NCBI GenBank assembly: GCA_016839815.1
Contig: JAEOTM010000076.1
Coordinates: forward strand, 7,247 to 71,246
Direction of reading: 5' to 3'
DNA from: Candidatus Hodarchaeota archaeon
GTDB taxonomy: Archaea > Asgardarchaeota > Heimdallarchaeia > Hodarchaeales > Hodarchaeaceae
Length of the DNA: 64,000 nucleotides
The first letter of the stretch is position 1. Every line of letters begins with the position of its first letter. Position numbers and translations under genes: made by a program. Under the pieces are notes generated by a model. It made no database searches. It saw only the letters and a list, made by a program, of their open reading frames with translations, and had not been told where the DNA came from. Shown here piece after piece: positions 2,527-62,035 of the stretch.

Positions 2527-3288
2527 TTACTTTTGTTTTCGTGAAATAATTACTAGGTATAATATACCAACTACAAGTAAAAATCCCTGAAATCCAGGAG
2601 TACTCGCGGTCTGAGTTGAAGTAGTCAGTTCATCTTGAGAAATCGTAACTGAGACTGTCATTGTAGTACTCTCTTGCGGAGTACTGATGGTCATACTTGA
2701 GGAGCCTCGAGTTCCACCATGATACTCACTAAAGCTATCAGATACACCATATGCCCAAATGATGTCGATTTCACCAGATAAAGGGATATCACTATCATAT
2801 TGATCTCCAGTAGCGAGAAGACGAGTAAACTCAATCGTTGTACTAGTTGTATTCTCGAGACCAGCATATGAGAGGATATCATTGGTTCCTCCCAGATCAG
2901 TGTCCTCTGGGTGGTTTGAGCCTGTTGCAACAAGGGAATAAGCATCTTTAATAACAACGGTACCATTTGATTCTACCCATGCATAAATAATATCTGCATC
3001 CTTCATCTGCACTGATGGATTAAAACCTATAGCTAACCACCCTGTAGTTTTTACAGTTATACCAATTGATATGTTAGTATCATCTATTACTTCCCAATTA
3101 AGATTATAATTCCCACCTCCAAGTGATAATGAGGAAGTATATTCATCTGAAGAGATAACTCCATCAACTTCCGGTACTCGCAGTATGGAATATGTAAATG
3201 TGTAAGTACTGACCATTTGGATACTAGCGACGAGAAGAATAAAGGAGAAAAATATAAGAAGTATTTTTATTGATTTTTTTTGTAACAT
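2527..3288 (-). CDS. secreted DOMON-domain protein with PGF-CTERM-type C-terminal sorting signal
   Basis: N-terminal signal. DOMON-like core: GWLAIGFNPSVQMKDADIIYAW...TIEFTRLLATGDQYDSDI...IIWAYG. S/T-rich stalk, then TPGFQGFLLVVGILYLVIISRKQK (PGF + TM helix + basic tail). Confidence 0.7.
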   Translation of the reverse strand: MLQKKSIKILLIFFSFILLVASIQMVSTYTFTYSILRVPEVDGVISSDEYTSSLSLGGGNYNLNWEVIDDTNISIGITVKTTGWLAIGFNPSVQMKDADIIYAWVESNGTVVIKDAYSLVATGSNHPEDTDLGGTNDILSYAGLENTTSTTIEFTRLLATGDQYDSDIPLSGEIDIIWAYGVSDSFSEYHGGTRGSSSMTISTPQESTTMTVSVTISQDELTTSTQTASTPGFQGFLLVVGILYLVIISRKQK

Positions 3289-5889: not shown

Positions 5890-6034
5890 CTTAATACCCA
5901 GAAAGAAGTTGTTATATCAAAGCTTTGGAAGGAATAAGGATTAAAAACTTTATTTCTGAATTTAGCTTTAGTTACCTGATTGGAGTAAACAATCATCTCT
6001 TATAATCATTTGTAAATCCTATTTATTGGTTGGT

Positions 6035-13060: not shown

Positions 13061-13897
13061 CTAATCCACGGAATTTGTTAAGTCTCGAAACGCAGATTTT
13101 ACTTTTTTTATGCTTGTTTCTGAAGTTCTCCAGATATCTCCTAACTGTGATGAGATTTCAGTTCTTAGCTCACTCATTATGTCTATCAATGAGTCACAAG
13201 CGTTCATCAATGAAGTTTTTTCAGGTATCGGAAAGAGATTTTTTAAGAGATCCAAGTCTTCAAGAGAGAATTTTGATTCTAACCTTCTTGTACCAAATGG
13301 TGAACGATACCGAAAATGTGCAATCCATTTTTCAACGATCCCTCGAAGCATAAAGAAATCTGCAGCCAAGGTATAATATTCCCCCCTAGCAATATGGAGG
13401 TAACAATAGAAAAGCCAGGCCCAAATACGTTCATCATCGTGAATAATTTCTTCTACATCAAGGGATGAAGGGATTTCTGTTGATTTCACATTCAGATTAT
13501 TACTTACATTCCAATCACTTATCTTAGAATTATCTACATAAGTTAAAAGATATGGTCCTCCTTCTGGAGGAGGAAGTGTATCCATTGTATACAATACGAT
13601 ATCTGCTTTCACATCAGGGTAGAAAAAATATATGATAAAATGATCTCTAACATGATCTGCATCAAATCTATGAAACCATTTGGGTAAAGCCCATTTCCAC
13701 CTATTTTTCCAGATAGAATCCCGATTGTCATCGGAGTTCACCACAATTCCTATATCTATGTCGCTAAATTTATCCATAGAATCAGTAGCACTACTTCCGC
13801 TTAGAAAAATCCCAATAACTGATTTAAATGATTTGAAGTAGGCTACTAGTTCTGAGTAAACACGATAATGTTCCGGTAACTCTTGTAGAACTACCAT
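13061..13897 (-). CDS. Pol-beta-superfamily nucleotidyltransferase (aminoglycoside adenylyltransferase-like architecture)
   Basis: GS...D.D motif (LSGSSATDSMDKFSDIDIGIVV) plus a helical C-terminal domain (LHIARGEYYTLAADFFMLRG) as in ANT(6)-type enzymes. Substrate unknown. Confidence 0.6.
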   Translation of the reverse strand: MVVLQELPEHYRVYSELVAYFKSFKSVIGIFLSGSSATDSMDKFSDIDIGIVVNSDDNRDSIWKNRWKWALPKWFHRFDADHVRDHFIIYFFYPDVKADIVLYTMDTLPPPEGGPYLLTYVDNSKISDWNVSNNLNVKSTEIPSSLDVEEIIHDDERIWAWLFYCYLHIARGEYYTLAADFFMLRGIVEKWIAHFRYRSPFGTRRLESKFSLEDLDLLKNLFPIPEKTSLMNACDSLIDIMSELRTEISSQLGDIWRTSETSIKKVKSAFRDLTNSVD

Positions 13898-13923
13898 TAT
13901 GTCACCTTGTGTTTCATAACTTT

Positions 13924-15177
13924 TTATAAGTAGGTTGAGCTGCCAAAGTACCCTTCTTCTCCAAGTGTCACACTGGAGAGCAAAAAAGCATTTACACCAA
14001 CTCCATCTCCATTATCATCATAATGCGGATGCTCTGCTCTACTATCCATTACTAAGGCATAATTAAAGGCTTCTCTCATCGAAATAAAGCCGTCAGTATT
14101 TACATCATGCCAAGTAACAGGTGTACCGTCAGGTGTTTGCATATTTACAGCAACCATGAAATGATATACAAATTCGTCATATGATCCTTCATTGTCACAT
14201 GACCATGAGCTTTCAGTCCCAGAGGCTGCAGTCATAATAACACGATTGGATCCAGATAGCGCAGGTATGAAAATACCTGAATTACATTGTTCCATGACGA
14301 TTATCATCTTAGCATAATCTATTGGATCTAATACTTCTGCAAAATGTTCTGGAGATATCGTTTCGTAATAATACAAACATAATCCTTCTTCCCACCCATG
14401 GTTTGTTGTGTATATAAACAAACTATCTTTTGGATCCATAATTTGTGCAAGGTAGTTAAATGTGTTGTTGAAATGCTGTGAATTGGCAGAAATATTGACA
14501 GGCATATCTGTATCTTCTGCTATTCCATCTTTATAAATAACAATGATATTTTGTGGGTCATAAGCGTATTTATTAACAAGGATTGAATACATGAATTTCA
14601 AATCGTTCCAATACCGGCTATAGGCTTTAGCAGCACGATAACCTCCACTGATTAAAACAGCATATCTATTCGCATATGTTTGAGCTGAATAATTCATAAG
14701 AATATGATAAATGCTTTCTCTGTACTGTGGATGTCTTGTCATTACGGTATATGAGGATTTTTCAAGAAGATACTCAAGTCCACCTACTCCTTCCGATTCT
14801 TCTGCCCAAGTTATATTTCCTTTAATCCTAATCCAGCTACCTGTTTCACGAGAAAGTACACTTGGTACGTCTCCTAATACTTCCATATACTTTGTGGTAG
14901 GTATAATAGTATTTTGTTGAAAATCATCCACATTTTTGAGTAATAGCGCCTTGTGTGATCCACCAAGAACATAATATCCTTCCATGGTCACAATCTTGCC
15001 TAAAAATTGTGTTACATTTTCCATTACTTCAGTAATATCCCGCGGAACGTCTTCCTCGGGAATTCCAGGAGGGGGAATTTCAGGAGGGGAAATTTCAGTA
15101 AAATAGTAAAATTGGAACATATTTGCTCCAAGAAGAACAATGACTAATATCAAAAGAACACTTGTTGTTTTTCCCAT
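13924..15177 (-). CDS. secreted peptidase C13 (legumain-like, clan CD) with EF-hand/dockerin-like Ca-binding loop
   Basis: Signal/anchor at the N-terminus. YAVLISGG...RYWND, catalytic His (FIYTTNHG) and Cys (VMEQCNSG). C-terminal DVNTDGFISMRE loop and DDNGDGVGV. Confidence 0.75.
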   Translation of the reverse strand: MGKTTSVLLILVIVLLGANMFQFYYFTEISPPEIPPPGIPEEDVPRDITEVMENVTQFLGKIVTMEGYYVLGGSHKALLLKNVDDFQQNTIIPTTKYMEVLGDVPSVLSRETGSWIRIKGNITWAEESEGVGGLEYLLEKSSYTVMTRHPQYRESIYHILMNYSAQTYANRYAVLISGGYRAAKAYSRYWNDLKFMYSILVNKYAYDPQNIIVIYKDGIAEDTDMPVNISANSQHFNNTFNYLAQIMDPKDSLFIYTTNHGWEEGLCLYYYETISPEHFAEVLDPIDYAKMIIVMEQCNSGIFIPALSGSNRVIMTAASGTESSWSCDNEGSYDEFVYHFMVAVNMQTPDGTPVTWHDVNTDGFISMREAFNYALVMDSRAEHPHYDDNGDGVGVNAFLLSSVTLGEEGYFGSSTYL

Positions 15178-15272
15178 TATAAATCACGTATTCCAATTAA
15201 TAAACGGTTTTTCCGATAATCAGATACCTACCTTAAATCCATTGCCACCATTACATATTCGGAGTTAAAAAT

Positions 15273-16148
15273 CTAAAGTAAATCAATTAGTTGAAAAAGA
15301 GTATCGACTGCATAGAAAGTGTTTTCCAGAGTAGCGATTCCAGTGTAAGGAGTTCTAGAAAACCCACCGAGGGTTGTTTGACATCCTTTGACTAATTTGA
15401 GAGTTGTATCTAAATATTTTGGTTTATAGGATAACATCCTTGAAACAATGAAACCAGCGTGGATATACTCCAAGAAAGATAACGAAGTTCCAGGTATGTT
15501 CGTGAATGACTGATGTGGACTGTTACAACTTGAGATGAATCTAGTTACATTGTTTATCTCATTAATGGGAAAATCCAACCAGTTGAGAATTTGAACCGCC
15601 TGCATAGTCTCAGTTAAAGTCGATAAATTTGAACTCCCAAAACCATAATCTTGATTCCTAAATGATAATATAAAGGAAATTATTTCTTTTTTTAATTCAG
15701 GATATAACTCATGCTTTAATGTAGTAGTAAGACTTGTTAAGAAATAGATTTTTCGAAAAACGGATATTTCTACAGGCAGATTTTGATCATGGAATGAATG
15801 GTATTTATCTAAGATGAACTGGGAAGGATCCTTTGTTGGAGAACTTAGAAAAAGAGAAAGAGTGTTTATTACATAATATGCTTGAATTATACTGAAGAAT
15901 CCCCCATCAGGATGTTGTAGTCCGTGTAGATATGAAATAGTGGCGGAACTCTCAATCGACTTCTCATCAACCAGTTTTTGGATAGCAATTGCATAATATG
16001 TGTCGGAGCTGTTCGCTTCATCCTGACGATAAAAGCAATATCCTCCATTTGTGCATTTACGTTCCTCAATGTATTTTAGTATGTTTTCAATTTCATTTTG
16101 ATTAAGAAGTCCTTTTCTTTGTAATTTTTGCACATTTGTCAGAAGCAA
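15273..16148 (-). CDS. prenyltransferase/squalene-oxidase repeat (alpha-alpha toroid) protein
   Basis: Five PFTB-like repeats: NGGYCFYRQDEANSSDTYYAI, HPDGGFFSIIQAYYVI, NQDYGFGSSNLSTLTETMQAV, SPHQSFTNIPGTSLSFLEYIHAG, TLGGFSRTPYTGIATLENTFYAV. No signal peptide. Confidence 0.65.
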   Translation of the reverse strand: MLLTNVQKLQRKGLLNQNEIENILKYIEERKCTNGGYCFYRQDEANSSDTYYAIAIQKLVDEKSIESSATISYLHGLQHPDGGFFSIIQAYYVINTLSLFLSSPTKDPSQFILDKYHSFHDQNLPVEISVFRKIYFLTSLTTTLKHELYPELKKEIISFILSFRNQDYGFGSSNLSTLTETMQAVQILNWLDFPINEINNVTRFISSCNSPHQSFTNIPGTSLSFLEYIHAGFIVSRMLSYKPKYLDTTLKLVKGCQTTLGGFSRTPYTGIATLENTFYAVDTLFQLIDLL

Positions 16149-16178
16149 TTCCCTTCCTAATTTGATCTTCCTTAGTTC

Positions 16179-16802
16179 TCACCATATGAAAGGAATAAAT
16201 CGCTTAGTTTTTTTCTGGTATTCACCATACTCTTTCTCGAAATATTTTCTTAAGATCTCTTCCTCATACTTTGAGATACTCACATAACCTGGAATTCCCA
16301 GAAGAAGTAACAATAAAAGAGGATTTTGTAAAACTAAAAGGAAGCCAAGAAAATAGTAACAATATGAAGCATATAACGGATGTCGAATATATTTATACAT
16401 CCCTCCTGTTTCTAATATAATAGGGATTCCCCATGAAAACGCACGTTTCCCTCGTGAAAGACGACCAACGACAGCGACCACTGTACCTACAGAAATAAGA
16501 AGAATCCCAATGAACTGAATACAAATCCCATAAAATCCTAGGTTTGAACCAAGCGGATAGTAAAAAAAGTTGGACTCAAATATCTGCTCGAATGGTATTA
16601 ATATAAACAGGACCCATACGGTTAATGAAGACAAATAGGTGAGAGTTGACAGAATATCTTGTTTTGCCTTAGGACGTATCTTTTTTTTCCGTGTACTTTC
16701 TTCACGTCTGTATGTCATAAGATCCAATGGAAGAGTAATAATCAGATACAACAGTAGATTTATACCGATTATTATTCCAATATGTACGTAAGCTAGCATC
16801 AT
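16179..16802 (-). CDS. isoprenylcysteine carboxyl methyltransferase (ICMT/PEMT) family membrane protein
   Basis: About 5 TM helices. GMYKYIRHPLYASYCYYFLG and C-terminal EEEILRKYFEKEYGEYQKKTKRFIPFIW match the ICMT-family signature. Confidence 0.75.
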   Translation of the reverse strand: MMLAYVHIGIIIGINLLLYLIITLPLDLMTYRREESTRKKKIRPKAKQDILSTLTYLSSLTVWVLFILIPFEQIFESNFFYYPLGSNLGFYGICIQFIGILLISVGTVVAVVGRLSRGKRAFSWGIPIILETGGMYKYIRHPLYASYCYYFLGFLLVLQNPLLLLLLLGIPGYVSISKYEEEILRKYFEKEYGEYQKKTKRFIPFIW

Positions 16803-16874
16803 TTCTCACTTAAAAGATGTGAATTTAGTAGTCAGGGTGTAAGGTATTCAATTCTATCTTTTTTATAGACGATT

Positions 16875-17786
16875 CTAGCGTTTTGTTGTTTCCTTATATA
16901 GTTCTGCAAGTTCATCGATATCAAATTCGTCAACAACGTCTTTTTGCTCTTTTAATGCCTTACCCGTTTCCTTCTCATCCAGAATTGCCCGTAATTTTTC
17001 ATGTTTGGTTCCTTTTATGAGATCTGGATCTTGTAATTTCCCTCGGCCTTTATCGGTTATTTTCCAGACTTGTTTGAAATCATCATACTCCAAGTCACCT
17101 TTTGTACGCAACTTCCTAAGAAGAATGAGAATTTTGTCGCGATTATATTCTACTTGACCCGTCCTGGATATAATTTCTAGCTGACCCAATAGCGCTAGTA
17201 ATGGTAAACCTTCTTTCTTTTCTACGAGCATATCGAAGATATAGATGGTGAGTAGTCTTGAAACTTTATCCTCTAAAGGAAATTTATCCTCTTCCATGCA
17301 TTCATGGATCCAGACAAGAACATCCCCGAATGACTTTGGAATTTTGCAGGTTGTGGAAAAAACACGATGTGGACGGTCATATCGGTTTAAAATATCCAAA
17401 CGATCGATCACTACTGAAGGATGTGTTCTAGAAATATCTACTTTGTTAAACACAACAGCTAGAGGTTTTCCAAGTGTAATTGGATTGTTTAATATCCGTA
17501 GAAATTCTCTTCTAACCTCAGAGAAGGTTGTTTCATCACTACCGTCAATCACAAAAATCGTGGCATCGACATGGGGGAGATATTCCTCAACAAACCTGCG
17601 TACCTCTTTTCTTCCACCCACTTCGATAAGTGAAAAAGTTGCCTTCCCTTCAACGACTATATCATATGATTGATGTGCTGTAGATGGAATTCCAGGCCTA
17701 AATTCTCCTTTTTGATATGATGAAATAAGTGTAGATTTTCCACTTCTTTCTAGGCCGTATAAAAGTACTTGTATCGCTCCTTTCAA
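16875..17786 (-). CDS. Arf/Arl/Sar-like small GTPase fused to a C-terminal winged-helix-like domain and acidic tail
   Basis: G1 GLERSGKST, G3 IEVGGRKEVRRF (compare WDVGGQ), G4 FNKVD, G5 STTCK. Residues about 170-260 are wHTH-like (LPLLALLGQLEIISRTGQVEYNRDKILILLRKLRTKGDLEY...WKITDKGR). Confidence 0.85.
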   Translation of the reverse strand: MKGAIQVLLYGLERSGKSTLISSYQKGEFRPGIPSTAHQSYDIVVEGKATFSLIEVGGRKEVRRFVEEYLPHVDATIFVIDGSDETTFSEVRREFLRILNNPITLGKPLAVVFNKVDISRTHPSVVIDRLDILNRYDRPHRVFSTTCKIPKSFGDVLVWIHECMEEDKFPLEDKVSRLLTIYIFDMLVEKKEGLPLLALLGQLEIISRTGQVEYNRDKILILLRKLRTKGDLEYDDFKQVWKITDKGRGKLQDPDLIKGTKHEKLRAILDEKETGKALKEQKDVVDEFDIDELAELYKETTKR

Positions 17787-17792
17787 AGTTAT

Positions 17793-18131
17793 TCATTCCT
17801 CGTTTTGTTCTACTCTTTCGATTTTAAAATAGACTGGTCGAATCCAGTCAGTACAACCCACAATATTACTGTTTTCGCTGGCCATATGAGGAATTGTACC
17901 ACCATATGCCAGTGCTAGAATATCATGACGAATATCTGCCCATGCCCATTCACAAAATCCCTCTGGAGATTTATAACTAGTCTCCTCGGTAACCATAAAC
18001 TCCTGTCCATCCTTGAGACGTTCACAACTCTTGATAGCATGATATTTTTCTTTTACATATTTTTTTATTAGATCGTGATTGACGGTTCTCTTCACTACAG
18101 TTATTTTACAATCAAACATAATTTTCACCAT
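17793..18131 (-). CDS. TIGR04076-family protein (function unknown)
   Basis: CKITVVKRT...CERLKDGQEF...PEGFCEWAWADIRHDILALAYGG...CTDWIRPVYFKIERV matches my recollection of the TIGR04076 pattern. Lies 6 nt upstream of the GTPase gene. Confidence 0.65.
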   Translation of the reverse strand: MVKIMFDCKITVVKRTVNHDLIKKYVKEKYHAIKSCERLKDGQEFMVTEETSYKSPEGFCEWAWADIRHDILALAYGGTIPHMASENSNIVGCTDWIRPVYFKIERVEQNEE

Positions 18132-18274
18132 ACTGTGACGTTCAAAAGCAAATCTCGGAATAAAAATGTTATTTACCTTTCATTCTGAAAAAGATCTTAA
18201 AAAATCTCCTGAAAATCTGATTTAGCTGAAATGGTAATGAACCATATCCAATATCCCTATTTGAGGAAACCAGA

Positions 18275-18667
18275 ATGAGTGTGATAACATCAATTACAGC
18301 AGTACTAGTAATTATAATCTTCATAGGACTTAGTATCTTTCAACTTCTCCTTGCTCTTGGAAAACCGTATGGGAAGGCAGCCTATGGAGGAAAGTAAGAA
18401 GTTTTACCTGATAATTTAAGAAGATTAAGTGTAATTACTCTCTTTATATTCTCAATTGCCACGATTTTCGTTGCAGTTCAAGCTGAATTTATTATAAACT
18501 TCCCATTTCCTGATATAGCCAATCTAGGTATCTGGGTTTTTGCGATATATTTAACAATTAACACGATTGCCAACTTTATGTCTCGGAGAGAATTGGAAAA
18601 GAAGATAATGACACCTTTGTCTTTTACTGCTGCGGTGTGCCTTTCCATAATAGGATTAAATCTATAA
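18275..18667 (+). pseudogene. small 4-TM membrane protein gene interrupted by one in-frame TAA (18395-18397)
   Basis: My translation: MSVITSITAVLVIIIFIGLSIFQLLLALGKPYGKAAYGGK*EVLPDNLRRLSVITLFIF...MTPLSFTAAVCLSIIGLNL. Both halves are in the same frame. GAGGA SD lies 7 nt before the ATG. Confidence 0.5.
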
Positions 18668-22161: not shown

Positions 22162-22986
22162 TTAAAAAGGGCGCGGAGGTAATTGATCCTTTATTCCTTC
22201 ATAGAGCTGGGAATTAATTTTATTCAACAAGGTCTCTAGGTAGGGTTTAATATCATTATTGTAGAAGAAACGACACATTAACAGAAAGTCAGTATTTTCT
22301 CCAATTCGTTTAATAATCCATCCCTCACGATCCATTTCTTCTAATTCATCAGATTCAGTTCGTATGGCTTCTAACCATAAGTCTTTTCCAGAAGGAATAA
22401 TAGGTATAAACGACTGAAAAATTGCCCGTTCATTCGGATTATTTTTACCAAAGTTCTTAATTATTCCTTCATCCAGATCTGCTATATATAGACTAAGAAA
22501 CCGCATACCCATCATATTTTTTGCTTCAAAACGGTTGATTTCAGCAGTAATTGAATCCGAGAGGGAATCTGGAAAATGTTGGGAAAACTGAATAATTGTT
22601 TTCATTCGTTTCTGTTCATTGGCTGGGATAACGCTTAGTTTAGAGAAATTTGAATCAATTATTGTTGATAAAAAAACGTTCAAATTTTTGTCTATTGCAT
22701 CAATTTTAGCTTTTGTATAGCCTACATTATCATAAATATCCTGTAGTACGATATAGGCTATTGGTATGGTGTTTTCTTCCTTCGGATTGTACATAACTAA
22801 CTGAAATTCAGCTAGATGAACGCTACGTAAGGATCCTTCGCCTGCAAATTCTCTAGAAAATGCTGTCAATGCACTTACTAATGGCCAGAGGAGAGTTGGA
22901 TCTATTTTCAATTTAATATCCTTATTCACAAAGATTTCGTGGCCTATCCCAGTTTCAATGTTACAAATAGCAAAAAGATGAATCAT
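22162..22986 (-). CDS. hypothetical protein; possible tandem longin/roadblock-like alpha/beta domains
   Basis: MIHLFAICNIETGIGHEIF...DPTLLWPLVSALTAFSREF...LRSVHLAEFQLVMY...IAYIVLQD, with a second similar stretch RFLSLYIADLDEGIIKNF. Pattern-level call only. Confidence 0.4.
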   Translation of the reverse strand: MIHLFAICNIETGIGHEIFVNKDIKLKIDPTLLWPLVSALTAFSREFAGEGSLRSVHLAEFQLVMYNPKEENTIPIAYIVLQDIYDNVGYTKAKIDAIDKNLNVFLSTIIDSNFSKLSVIPANEQKRMKTIIQFSQHFPDSLSDSITAEINRFEAKNMMGMRFLSLYIADLDEGIIKNFGKNNPNERAIFQSFIPIIPSGKDLWLEAIRTESDELEEMDREGWIIKRIGENTDFLLMCRFFYNNDIKPYLETLLNKINSQLYEGIKDQLPPRPF

Positions 22987-61269: not shown

Positions 61270-61486
61270 TCTAATAGGAAAAATATCATTGCTAGACAAA
61301 CAAAATCATGATGCAAAACAATGAATTCTGGATAATAAGAAGAGGAGGAGGGAGTTCAGCTAGTGGAGGTTTCTTTAGGTTTATTTCGATTTTTTTATAT
61401 ACTGGATGAAATACACTTATTCCAAATACAAAAAGGATGGAATCAGAATCACAGAAAATTATCGGGCAGGACAGGGGATTCGAATT

Positions 61487-62035
61487 ATGAAACAGAAATT
61501 AGTACTGAAATTAGTTCTTTTAGGTGACCCTGGTGTGGGTAAAACTTCTTTAATTTCCCAATTTGTCCATGCCAAGTTTAGAAATTCCTATCAACTCACA
61601 GTTGGCTTAGATATTTCTTCAAAGCAAATTAAATTAGATGACGGTCGTACTGTCACTCTTAGTATCAATGATATTGGTGGTCAAGCTCGGTTTGCTGCTA
61701 TACGCCATATGTTCTTTAAAGGTGCTCATCTTGCTATGTTTGTCTTTGATGTAACAAGAGCTGAAACACTGAGAAATATTGTTGATCCATGGCATAAAGA
61801 ACTCATGGAATTTTGCAGTCAACCTGATTCTACAAGATCCGCAATTCAAACAATATTGGTTGGTAATAAAACTGACCTAGAAGATTACCGAATGGTTGAG
61901 GATGATGAGGGGAAAGCCTTAGCAAAGAAAATTGGTGCTCAAGGTTACATTTCAGCCTCTGCAAAAGAAAATCTCCAAGTTGATGAAGCTTTCAAACGGC
62001 TAGCTCAATCGTTCTTTGATCAAGTTCGCACATAA
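61487..62035 (+). CDS. Rab/Ras-like small GTPase
   Basis: G1 LLGDPGVGKTS, switch I YQLTVGLD, G3 NDIGGQARF, G4 VGNKTDL, G5 SASAKE. I prefer ATG 61487 (GGGGA 9-14 nt upstream; TATA-like ttttttatata at 61391) over the track start 61406. No C-terminal Cys. Confidence 0.85.
   Translation: MKQKLVLKLVLLGDPGVGKTSLISQFVHAKFRNSYQLTVGLDISSKQIKLDDGRTVTLSINDIGGQARFAAIRHMFFKGAHLAMFVFDVTRAETLRNIVDPWHKELMEFCSQPDSTRSAIQTILVGNKTDLEDYRMVEDDEGKALAKKIGAQGYISASAKENLQVDEAFKRLAQSFFDQVRT

Follow-up and report, generated by a model that had tools for sequence, protein, structure and literature searches.

An Arf-like GTPase beside a stand-alone, apparently zinc-less protein of prenyltransferase-beta fold in a gene cluster of Hodarchaeales

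How the small GTPases of Asgard archaea are targeted to membranes, and where eukaryotic prenylation came from, are open questions of eukaryogenesis, and both are raised by a gene cluster of a Candidatus Hodarchaeota archaeon. The cluster occupies positions 18131-15273 on the minus strand of a 64,000-nucleotide (nt) stretch of contig JAEOTM010000076.1, hereafter the window, from a genome of Hodarchaeales, the archaeal order closest to eukaryotes. It sets an Arf-like GTPase beside a membrane methyltransferase and a protein with the fold of the protein prenyltransferase beta subunit, which we call the toroid, and a first reading of the sequence (the original prediction) had proposed that these genes form a module for prenylation and carboxyl-methylation tied to the GTPase. 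For Lokiarchaeum, Dey, Thattai and Baum pointed out the lack of any known prenyltransferase, CaaX box or GDI, and they proposed checking the operon neighbours of GTPases (PMC4917890); the locus is a neighbour pair of the kind that they advised inspecting, here in Hodarchaeales. Judged from its sequence, the locus is evidently no prenylation system, and a tempting but mistaken lead can be dropped.

The cluster consists of four genes, listed here in the order of transcription.

17793 to 18131, minus strand: TIGR04076-family small protein, first gene of the cluster (NCBIfam TIGR04076 match)
16875 to 17786, minus strand: Arf-like GTPase with a winged helix and a helical tail (PF00025; AF2 model)
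16179 to 16802, minus strand: membrane methyltransferase of the ICMT/PEMT superfamily (PEMT PF04191)
15273 to 16148, minus strand: (alpha/alpha)6 toroid, cytosolic and stand-alone, of protein-prenyltransferase-beta fold (PF00432; AF2 model; Foldseek)

The open reading frame (ORF) coordinates and the Pfam and NCBIfam matches confirm that the four genes run in one direction with gaps of 6, 72 and 30 nt, as predicted. Very probably, this is a clade-specific cluster of one Hodarchaeales lineage, probably co-transcribed, and not a prenylation/methylation pathway of CaaX type. The GTPase and the methyltransferase are native Asgard genes, and the toroid comes from a large family whose members stand alone, have ~280 amino acids (aa), carry a consensus of acidic helix N-caps at the positions of the zinc (Zn) ligands and have a dynamin-like GTPase as their commonest partner. 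The cluster is undescribed, and what is new in it is a Zn-less, stand-alone form of a known fold that repeatedly has GTPases as neighbours. A literature search found nothing on this cluster, on TIGR04076 function or on Asgard ICMT, and the Asgard Arf papers are silent on prenylation and gene neighbourhoods (bioRxiv 10.1101/2024.02.28.582541; PMC11914678).

The fold of the toroid is clear. It matches the Prenyltrans model PF00432 well above threshold (8.4e-20, 71.8 bits against a cut-off of 26.5), and its AF2 model, built on a 31-sequence alignment (pLDDT 93.6, pTM 0.92), has 12 barrel helices arranged as six hairpins, so that the toroid of PFTB-type repeats that had been predicted was right in its fold and wrong in its number of repeats, which had been given as five. 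Foldseek against the PDB placed the beta subunits of RabGGTase and FTase first (TM-score 0.73, E ~3e-7, ~14% identity); the top 35 matches were all RabGGTase or FTase beta, with TM-scores up to 0.75, and squalene-hopene cyclases came lower. The model and this ranking bear out the predicted prenyltransferase-beta-type fold, and the best sequence-profile match was again RabGGTase beta (4e-9). The lack of any hydrophobic segment supports the prediction of a cytosolic protein. Compared with the prenyltransferase beta subunits (RabGGTase/GGTase-II, FTase and GGTase-I; PF00432), the toroid shares the (alpha/alpha)6 architecture of ~12 helices and the GGF-type repeats, but it is compact (291 aa against 330-440 aa), has only 14% identity to them, and is a prokaryotic, stand-alone protein with neither an alpha-subunit partner nor a CaaX, CC or CxC substrate nearby.

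The active site is where the toroid appears to depart most from these enzymes. We take the Zn ligands to be D238, C240 and H290 in RabGGTase beta and D297, C299 and H362 in FTase beta, and the basic residues that bind the isoprenoid diphosphate in RabGGTase beta to be H190, R232 and K235. The profile alignment was checked by counting along its printed segments, which reproduced D238, C240, H190, R232 and K235 of RabGGTase beta. In this alignment, the toroid residues opposite the three Zn ligands would be S224, E227 and E275 (or N276 with one gap), and those opposite H190, R232 and K235 would be E180, an aliphatic residue (I; I/V in the family) and T (T/S in the family). The equivalent of H290 was placed by extension, as the in-register match ends at GGF(A/S) and a HMMER search of the PDB with a profile of the last two repeats also stopped at the GGF motif, short of His290; the position was set 11 residues on, by ungapped extension and counting. 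Over 79 family members, the three Zn-equivalent columns hold S/A/G/P, E (78/78) and E (70/79) or N/D/Y/F, and in the alignment of these members no Cys or His was found at any of them. By alignment, then, the Asp/Cys/His triad that the original prediction had proposed to look for is absent, its place being taken by Ser, Glu and Glu (or Asn), and the diphosphate-binding Arg/Lys/His correspond to Ile/Thr/Glu.

Conserved acid-Thr pairs recur along the toroid (D49-T50, E/D180-T181, E227 and E275-x-T277), and these are the generic helix N-cap consensus of the repeat; the family therefore looks like a plain toroid and not like a remodelled Zn enzyme. Arg265 and Glu227, both invariant, would line an acidic funnel. 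We also considered the conserved Cys32, Cys208 and Cys256 as a metal or Fe-S site and rejected this, because their place is that of the consensus 'CQ' in the repeats of prenyltransferase beta subunits; Cys38, which is also conserved, is not accounted for in this way.

The GTPase matches the Arf model PF00025 over residues 4-162 of 303 (1.4e-21, 77 bits against a cut-off of 22.3), and its G domain is nearest to Arl3 and Arl13B in both structure (Foldseek target-normalised TM-score 0.73-0.89) and sequence (PDB match 4e-23), confirming the Arf-like assignment that had been made. An Arf-like G domain (1-165) is followed by a winged helix (~174-243) and a helical tail that ends in DEFDIDELAELYKETTKR; in the AF2 model (pLDDT 83.5) the beta1 strand starts from residue 5 and the C-terminal winged helix has the order H-H-H-beta-beta. 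The fold and sequence of the G domain are alike those of the Arf family (Arl3/Arl13B/Arl8 and Asgard ArfR), but the window protein adds ~140 aa at its C-terminus, comprising the winged helix and a conserved acidic/basic tail, and has neither an N-terminal amphipathic helix nor Gly2 (it starts MKGAIQV, and the orthologue alignment shows no N-terminal extension). HodArfR1, by comparison, has 184 aa and an amphipathic helix (bioRxiv 10.1101/2024.02.28.582541; PMC11914678). The G3 motif EVGGRKEVR, in which the Asp of the canonical DxxGQ is changed to Glu and the catalytic Gln to Arg, is invariant in 18 orthologues, and the tail, DEFD(I/L)DELAELYKKTT..KRK, is conserved across orthologues with no Cys in any of the 18. 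Full-length orthologues with 50-87% identity occur in Hod-, Heimdall-, Thor- and Promethearchaeota, and by this homology the GTPase is a pan-Asgard orthogroup and a native Asgard gene. We know of no described function for this pan-Asgard orthogroup of EVGGRKEVR winged-helix GTPases. It evolves very slowly, with 81-87% identity across the relatives of the window against 77-80% for NadA. Scanned with the GTPase alignment, metagenomes yielded little but eukaryote-like Arf proteins at ~25% identity, together with two short contigs carrying true orthologues, and gave nothing on gene context.

The toroid has a different distribution. Relatives at 30-45% identity were found in Syntrophales and other Thermodesulfobacteriota, Methanoregula, Methanolinea, Methanospirillum, Methanoperedens, Thermoplasmata and Methanosuratincola, those of Syntrophales and methanogens reaching 40% identity to the window toroid, and an exhaustive profile search returned 226 clusters (50% identity) at E < 1e-30 and 832 at E < 1e-10, almost all of them single-domain proteins of 270-310 aa. 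The motifs of the family, C-x2-GG(Y/F)CFY(R/K), DxGFG...(E/D)T, xLE(Y/H) and GGF(S/A)R...GIATLE(N)T, are all found in the window toroid. Judged by these matches, the family is patchy among anaerobes (Hodarchaeota, Syntrophales, Methanomicrobiales and Methanoperedens) and is not Asgard-specific. A neighbour-joining tree groups the Hodarchaeota toroids in a single clade inside the bacterial ones, which is consistent with horizontal acquisition, and members linked to dynamin-like genes occur across the whole tree.

Clustering of the neighbours within 5 kb at 91 toroid loci, with duplicates counted, showed that the commonest is a dynamin-family GTPase of ~560-620 aa (Dynamin_N 1e-26), present at 44 of the 91 and almost always on the same strand. 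After removal of duplicates, a dynamin-like GTPase lies at most 5 kb from the toroid at 29 of 51 bacterial loci and 15 of 24 loci of Methanomicrobiales. It directly adjoins the toroid at no fewer than 12 loci, many with a 4-nt overlap of start and stop; at L011, L047, L060, L062, L067, L068, L070, L074, L077, L079 and L080 the dynamin-like gene ends 4 nt inside the toroid gene or a few nt before its start (the toroid having been placed at about position 6001 in most of these dynamin-coupled loci). Three gene orders recur: dynamin-like GTPase, toroid, enolase; enolase, toroid, dynamin-like GTPase; and dynamin-like GTPase, enolase, a trio of AAA16, DUF6062 and 142-aa genes, toroid, HIT. Enolase is a recurrent third member, found near the toroid at 30 loci. 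Dynamin-like genes are also found as pairs in bacteria, and the DLP1/DLP2 operons (PMC6104087) resemble the arrangement described here in that a dynamin-family GTPase is co-oriented, and often translationally coupled, with a second gene; the partner here is a prenyltransferase-fold toroid and not a second dynamin-like protein, and the GTPase of the window is Arf-like. We found no description of a dynamin-toroid pair in the literature.

Two further observations concern the family outside the Asgard archaea. The block of dynamin-like GTPase, toroid and enolase is common to Syntrophales, which are bacteria, and Methanomicrobiales, which are archaea; the two are classic syntrophic partners, and the shared block suggests transfer of the unit between domains. 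In many Syntrophaceae (L006, L010, L015, L022, L030, L075 and L084), the toroid is preceded by an AAA_16 ATPase, a Cys-rich DUF6062 protein and a third protein, helical, of ~142 aa and unmatched in Pfam, and is followed by a HIT or a HEAT/zinc-ribbon protein, making up a conserved, uncharacterised module. As a by-product, this work brings out a large uncharacterised family of prenyltransferase-beta fold with a conserved dynamin-like GTPase partner in Syntrophales and Methanomicrobiales, and this family seems to have passed from one syntrophic anaerobe to another and also to have entered Hodarchaeota.

Among Hodarchaeota, the order GTPase then toroid is found in five distinct genomes (the window, L001/L002, L003-L005, L012 and L013). 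The toroid is the first or second gene after the GTPase in each, on the same strand with gaps of 30-50 nt, and what lies beyond it differs. A wider block of MarR, PNPOx, YhhN, DUF1801 and isochorismatase genes and others as far as NadA is common to all of these genomes. No dynamin-like ORF was found in the 64-kb window or at any Hodarchaeota locus, the upstream position being held by the Arf-like GTPase instead. Comparison of window positions 13061-16802 with L001, L003, L013 and L092 marks a hot spot of gene content in otherwise collinear genomes, where genes for PEMT, toroid, Polyketide_cyc2, a 219-aa protein, C13 and a nucleotidyltransferase come and go.

We tentatively favour, at somewhat less than even chance, a reading in which the toroid is a non-Zn, GTPase-associated accessory that was re-paired with an Arf-like GTPase in one clade of Hodarchaeales. 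The ancestral partner would have been a dynamin-like GTPase; the toroid would have been transferred into Hodarchaeota and then paired with the Arf-like GTPase in place of the dynamin-like one. It would probably not be a catalyst and would instead bind a ligand as an accessory to a membrane-related GTPase cycle, with the head group of a lipid or the basic tail of a peptide seated in its acidic central funnel, and the membrane methyltransferase would be an optional add-on that acts on a membrane lipid or a small molecule. We favour this explanation because the family as a whole is linked to GTPases and because the toroid keeps its place right after the GTPase while the genes downstream vary; the dynamin-like partner elsewhere raises the prior for a GTPase-related role. 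The GTPase tie of the original prediction survives in this altered form, as the commonest neighbour of the family elsewhere is a GTPase, and its link through prenylation does not.

Nearly as likely is that the genes are neighbours without a functional tie: a variable islet downstream of the GTPase would have received the toroid, and in some genomes the methyltransferase, with a role of the toroid unconnected to the GTPase and possible co-transcription by read-through. Several results speak for this and weigh against an accessory of the GTPase. A check of the gene order in related genomes had been proposed, and the order was kept only in close relatives that are syntenic overall, so that the conserved adjacency is weak evidence, being confined to genomes that carry the whole block. 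The gene content between the GTPase and NadA is different in each genome, which makes this stretch a variable islet: it holds PEMT, toroid, C13 and a nucleotidyltransferase in the window, PKcyc2 and another gene in addition in L003, neither PEMT nor C13 in L001, and only PKcyc2 in L092. The last of these, B3_Heim, has the same block with a GTPase 81% identical to that of the window and carries neither the toroid nor the methyltransferase. The toroid is the fastest-evolving gene of the block (51-55% identity against 81-87% for the GTPase and 77-80% for NadA). The orthogroup of the GTPase is pan-Asgard without the toroid, and its orthologues in Heimdallarchaeota L094 and in the metagenomic contig L093, of unassigned lineage, have unrelated neighbours. 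Conversely, the remaining toroids of Hodarchaeota are flanked by an S15 peptidase and an amidase (L057/L097) or adjoin a TPR gene (L095), and no GTPase neighbour was found at these loci. Elsewhere in the family, MFS transporters are found near the toroid at 12 loci, and one distant member adjoins an MFS gene and not a GTPase. With 2 of ~58 window genes coding for small GTPases, chance alone gives adjacency in ~7% of cases per context and in ~19% over the three Hodarchaeota contexts. Finally, hhalign found no region shared by the C-terminal domain of the GTPase and the dynamin-like proteins that could bind the toroid (probability ~1%). Against mere neighbourhood stand the constant first or second place of the toroid after the GTPase, on one strand and with short gaps in five genomes, and the fact that the strongest conserved partner of the family elsewhere is a GTPase as well.

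An unlikely alternative leaves the GTPase aside and joins the toroid to the methyltransferase in a two-step module for a lipid or small molecule, the toroid binding or presenting an isoprenoid-type or amphiphilic substrate that the membrane enzyme then methylates. The methyltransferase (206-207 aa, ~4-5 transmembrane segments) carries the motif RHPLY...EE..L...F..EY (sequence RHPLY...EEEILRKYFEKEYGEY). It passes the PEMT model PF04191 (32.2 bits against a cut-off of 25) and falls short of both the ICMT model PF04140 (19.5 bits against 24) and the NCBIfam equivalog NF040696 isopcys_mtase (54 bits against 160); its PDB matches are the ICMTs of Tribolium (1e-7) and Methanosarcina (6e-7), over an alignment that covers the region of the S-adenosylmethionine (SAM)-binding motif. 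The assignment to the ICMT family therefore stands at the level of the superfamily, with respect to membrane topology and motif, and not at that of the curated family. With ICMT/Ste14 (4A2N of Methanosarcina, 5V7P of Tribolium) and the PEMT/DUF1295 superfamily it shares several transmembrane segments and the C-terminal SAM-binding RHPxY...EE...L...F...Y, but unlike ICMT it stays below the curated thresholds, is facultative in its cluster and has no prenylcysteine substrate candidate that we could find.

In favour of a joint module, the two genes lie 30-35 nt apart in the window, L003 and L012, both folds are known in isoprenoid and lipid chemistry, and a different, shorter PEMT/ICMT paralogue of 168 aa (L057 8447-8953, minus strand) lies two genes from the toroid of the outgroup Hodarchaeota locus L057. 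That copy is a distant paralogue on the opposite strand, and its presence could be chance or a second toroid-methyltransferase association. The presence of the methyltransferase in the cluster is facultative: it stands between GTPase and toroid only in the window, L003 and L012, and the toroid persists without it in L001/L002 and L013. No PEMT/ICMT-like gene was found near the toroid at ~80 bacterial and methanogen loci, and the methyltransferase is, by homology, a pan-Asgard orthogroup and a native Asgard gene, far wider in its distribution than the toroid.

It is improbable, in our estimate, that the toroid family is a prokaryotic sister or precursor of the eukaryotic prenyltransferase beta subunit that worked with GTPases before eukaryogenesis, with dynamin-like ones in syntrophic bacteria and methanogens and with Arf-like ones in Hodarchaeales. 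If it were so, the funnel of the toroid would bind the basic tail of the GTPase or a lipid, eukaryotes would have added the Zn site, the alpha subunit and CaaX chemistry later, and the neighbouring enzyme of the ICMT superfamily would foreshadow the prenyl-methyl pathway. The family could serve as an outgroup when the ancestry of the eukaryotic beta subunit is traced.

We consider it very improbable that the adjacent GTPase, or some other protein ending in Cys, is lipidated by a prokaryotic protein prenyltransferase and carboxyl-methylated by an ICMT, which was the idea of the original prediction. The fold nearest to RabGGTase and FTase beta, the PF00432 score, the adjoining enzyme of the ICMT superfamily and the advice to inspect the operon neighbours of GTPases (PMC4917890) had made it attractive. 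Against it stand the changed residues at the Zn and diphosphate positions, the ends of the candidate substrates, the dispensability of both enzymes in syntenic relatives and the unrelated contexts of GTPase orthologues. No C-terminal Cys was found in the two small GTPases of the window, in 18 orthologues of the Arf-like GTPase or in 47 dynamin-like partners, which agrees with the caveat already attached to the prediction that neither window GTPase ends in CaaX, CC or CxC (the Arf-like protein ends in DEFDIDELAELYKETTKR and the other in ...FFDQVRT). This second small GTPase (61406-62035, plus strand) is Ras/Rab-like (PF00071 1.4e-44) and has an N-terminal extension of ~30 aa. Only three ORFs of the window end in Cxxx, all of them stop-to-stop frames of 61-70 aa and none credible. 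A second caveat, that no alpha-subunit-like gene is adjacent, also held, in the window and at ~95 related loci; the TPR neighbour of the L095 toroid matches TPR_12 and MalT-type models, and PPTA repeats are not among its Pfam matches. Of the findings that had been named in advance as contrary to prenylation, a toroid without the Zn site was found in the family alignment, and a lack of C-terminal Cys motifs was found in the window. A toroid without the residues of prenylation and a GTPase without Cys are therefore not an archaeal forerunner of Ras/Rab lipidation.

Least probable of all is a role of the cluster in processing the lipid anchors at the C-termini of surface proteins of PGF-CTERM type, for which a membrane-anchored Peptidase_C13 of the legumain/GPI8 family just downstream (13924-15177) and one PGF-CTERM-like protein in the window could be cited, since the toroid is cytosolic, with no signal peptide or transmembrane segment, the C13 gene is not kept beside it (separated in L003; absent from L001, L013 and L092), the conserved partners of the family elsewhere are cytoplasmic (dynamin-like GTPase, enolase, HIT), and PGF-CTERM processing is done by the unrelated archaeosortase. 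PGF-CTERM proteins had been called abundant here; a simple tail search of the window found a single one (2527-3288, minus strand), ending ...TPGFQGFLLVVGILYLVIISRKQK.

As to transcription, three short signals were read from the sequence around the cluster.

18159 to 18168, minus strand: TATA-like A/T box CATTTTTATT, candidate cluster promoter, 28-37 nt upstream of the TIGR04076 ATG
16151 to 16158, minus strand: purine-rich stretch AGGAAGGG resembling a Shine-Dalgarno site, 3-10 nt ahead of the TTG start of the toroid
15267 to 15271, minus strand: T5 run, candidate archaeal terminator, starting two bases past the toroid stop codon

The TATA-like box is weak evidence because the genome is A+T-rich. 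The AGGAAGGG upstream of the toroid would fit its translation as an internal gene of an operon, and the T5 run, as a candidate terminator, marks the likely end of the transcription unit; the downstream Peptidase_C13 gene has a TATA-like TTTATTAATT of its own upstream. A four-gene transcription unit from 18131 to 15273 is therefore plausible. Between 13000 and 20500, Rfam and repeat scans gave neither an RNA family nor the boundaries of a mobile element.

The first gene of the cluster encodes a protein of 112 aa with four Cys that matches TIGR04076 (1.3e-18, 67 bits against a cut-off of 33 in NCBIfam). Like the GTPase and the toroid, it has no hydrophobic segment, in contrast to the ~4-5 of the methyltransferase. 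It precedes the GTPase in L003, L012, L013 and L092 as well; in L001/L002 it does not, and the sole copy there is elsewhere, on the opposite strand and 38% identical.

Around the cluster, the Peptidase_C13 gene (minus strand; legumain/GPI-transamidase family, 3.9e-18, with an N-terminal membrane anchor) belongs to a protease family typical of eukaryotes and is conserved in L003/L005 and not in the other relatives, being split from the toroid by other genes in L003. We considered it as an analogue of a CaaX protease for the module and rejected this, as it is not conserved beside the toroid. On the other side of the cluster, a gene for a small protein with three transmembrane segments (18275-18667, plus strand; 70% identical to L003:5459-5857, minus strand) has an in-frame TAA at codon 43, where its orthologue has Tyr, in a frame that is otherwise intact; the gene may be a pseudogene of recent origin, or the TAA may be read through or stem from a sequencing error. 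Within the whole block, conservation is highest for 22162-22986 (minus strand; 87-89% identity to L001, L003, L012 and L092), which encodes a protein of 274 aa with no Pfam match.

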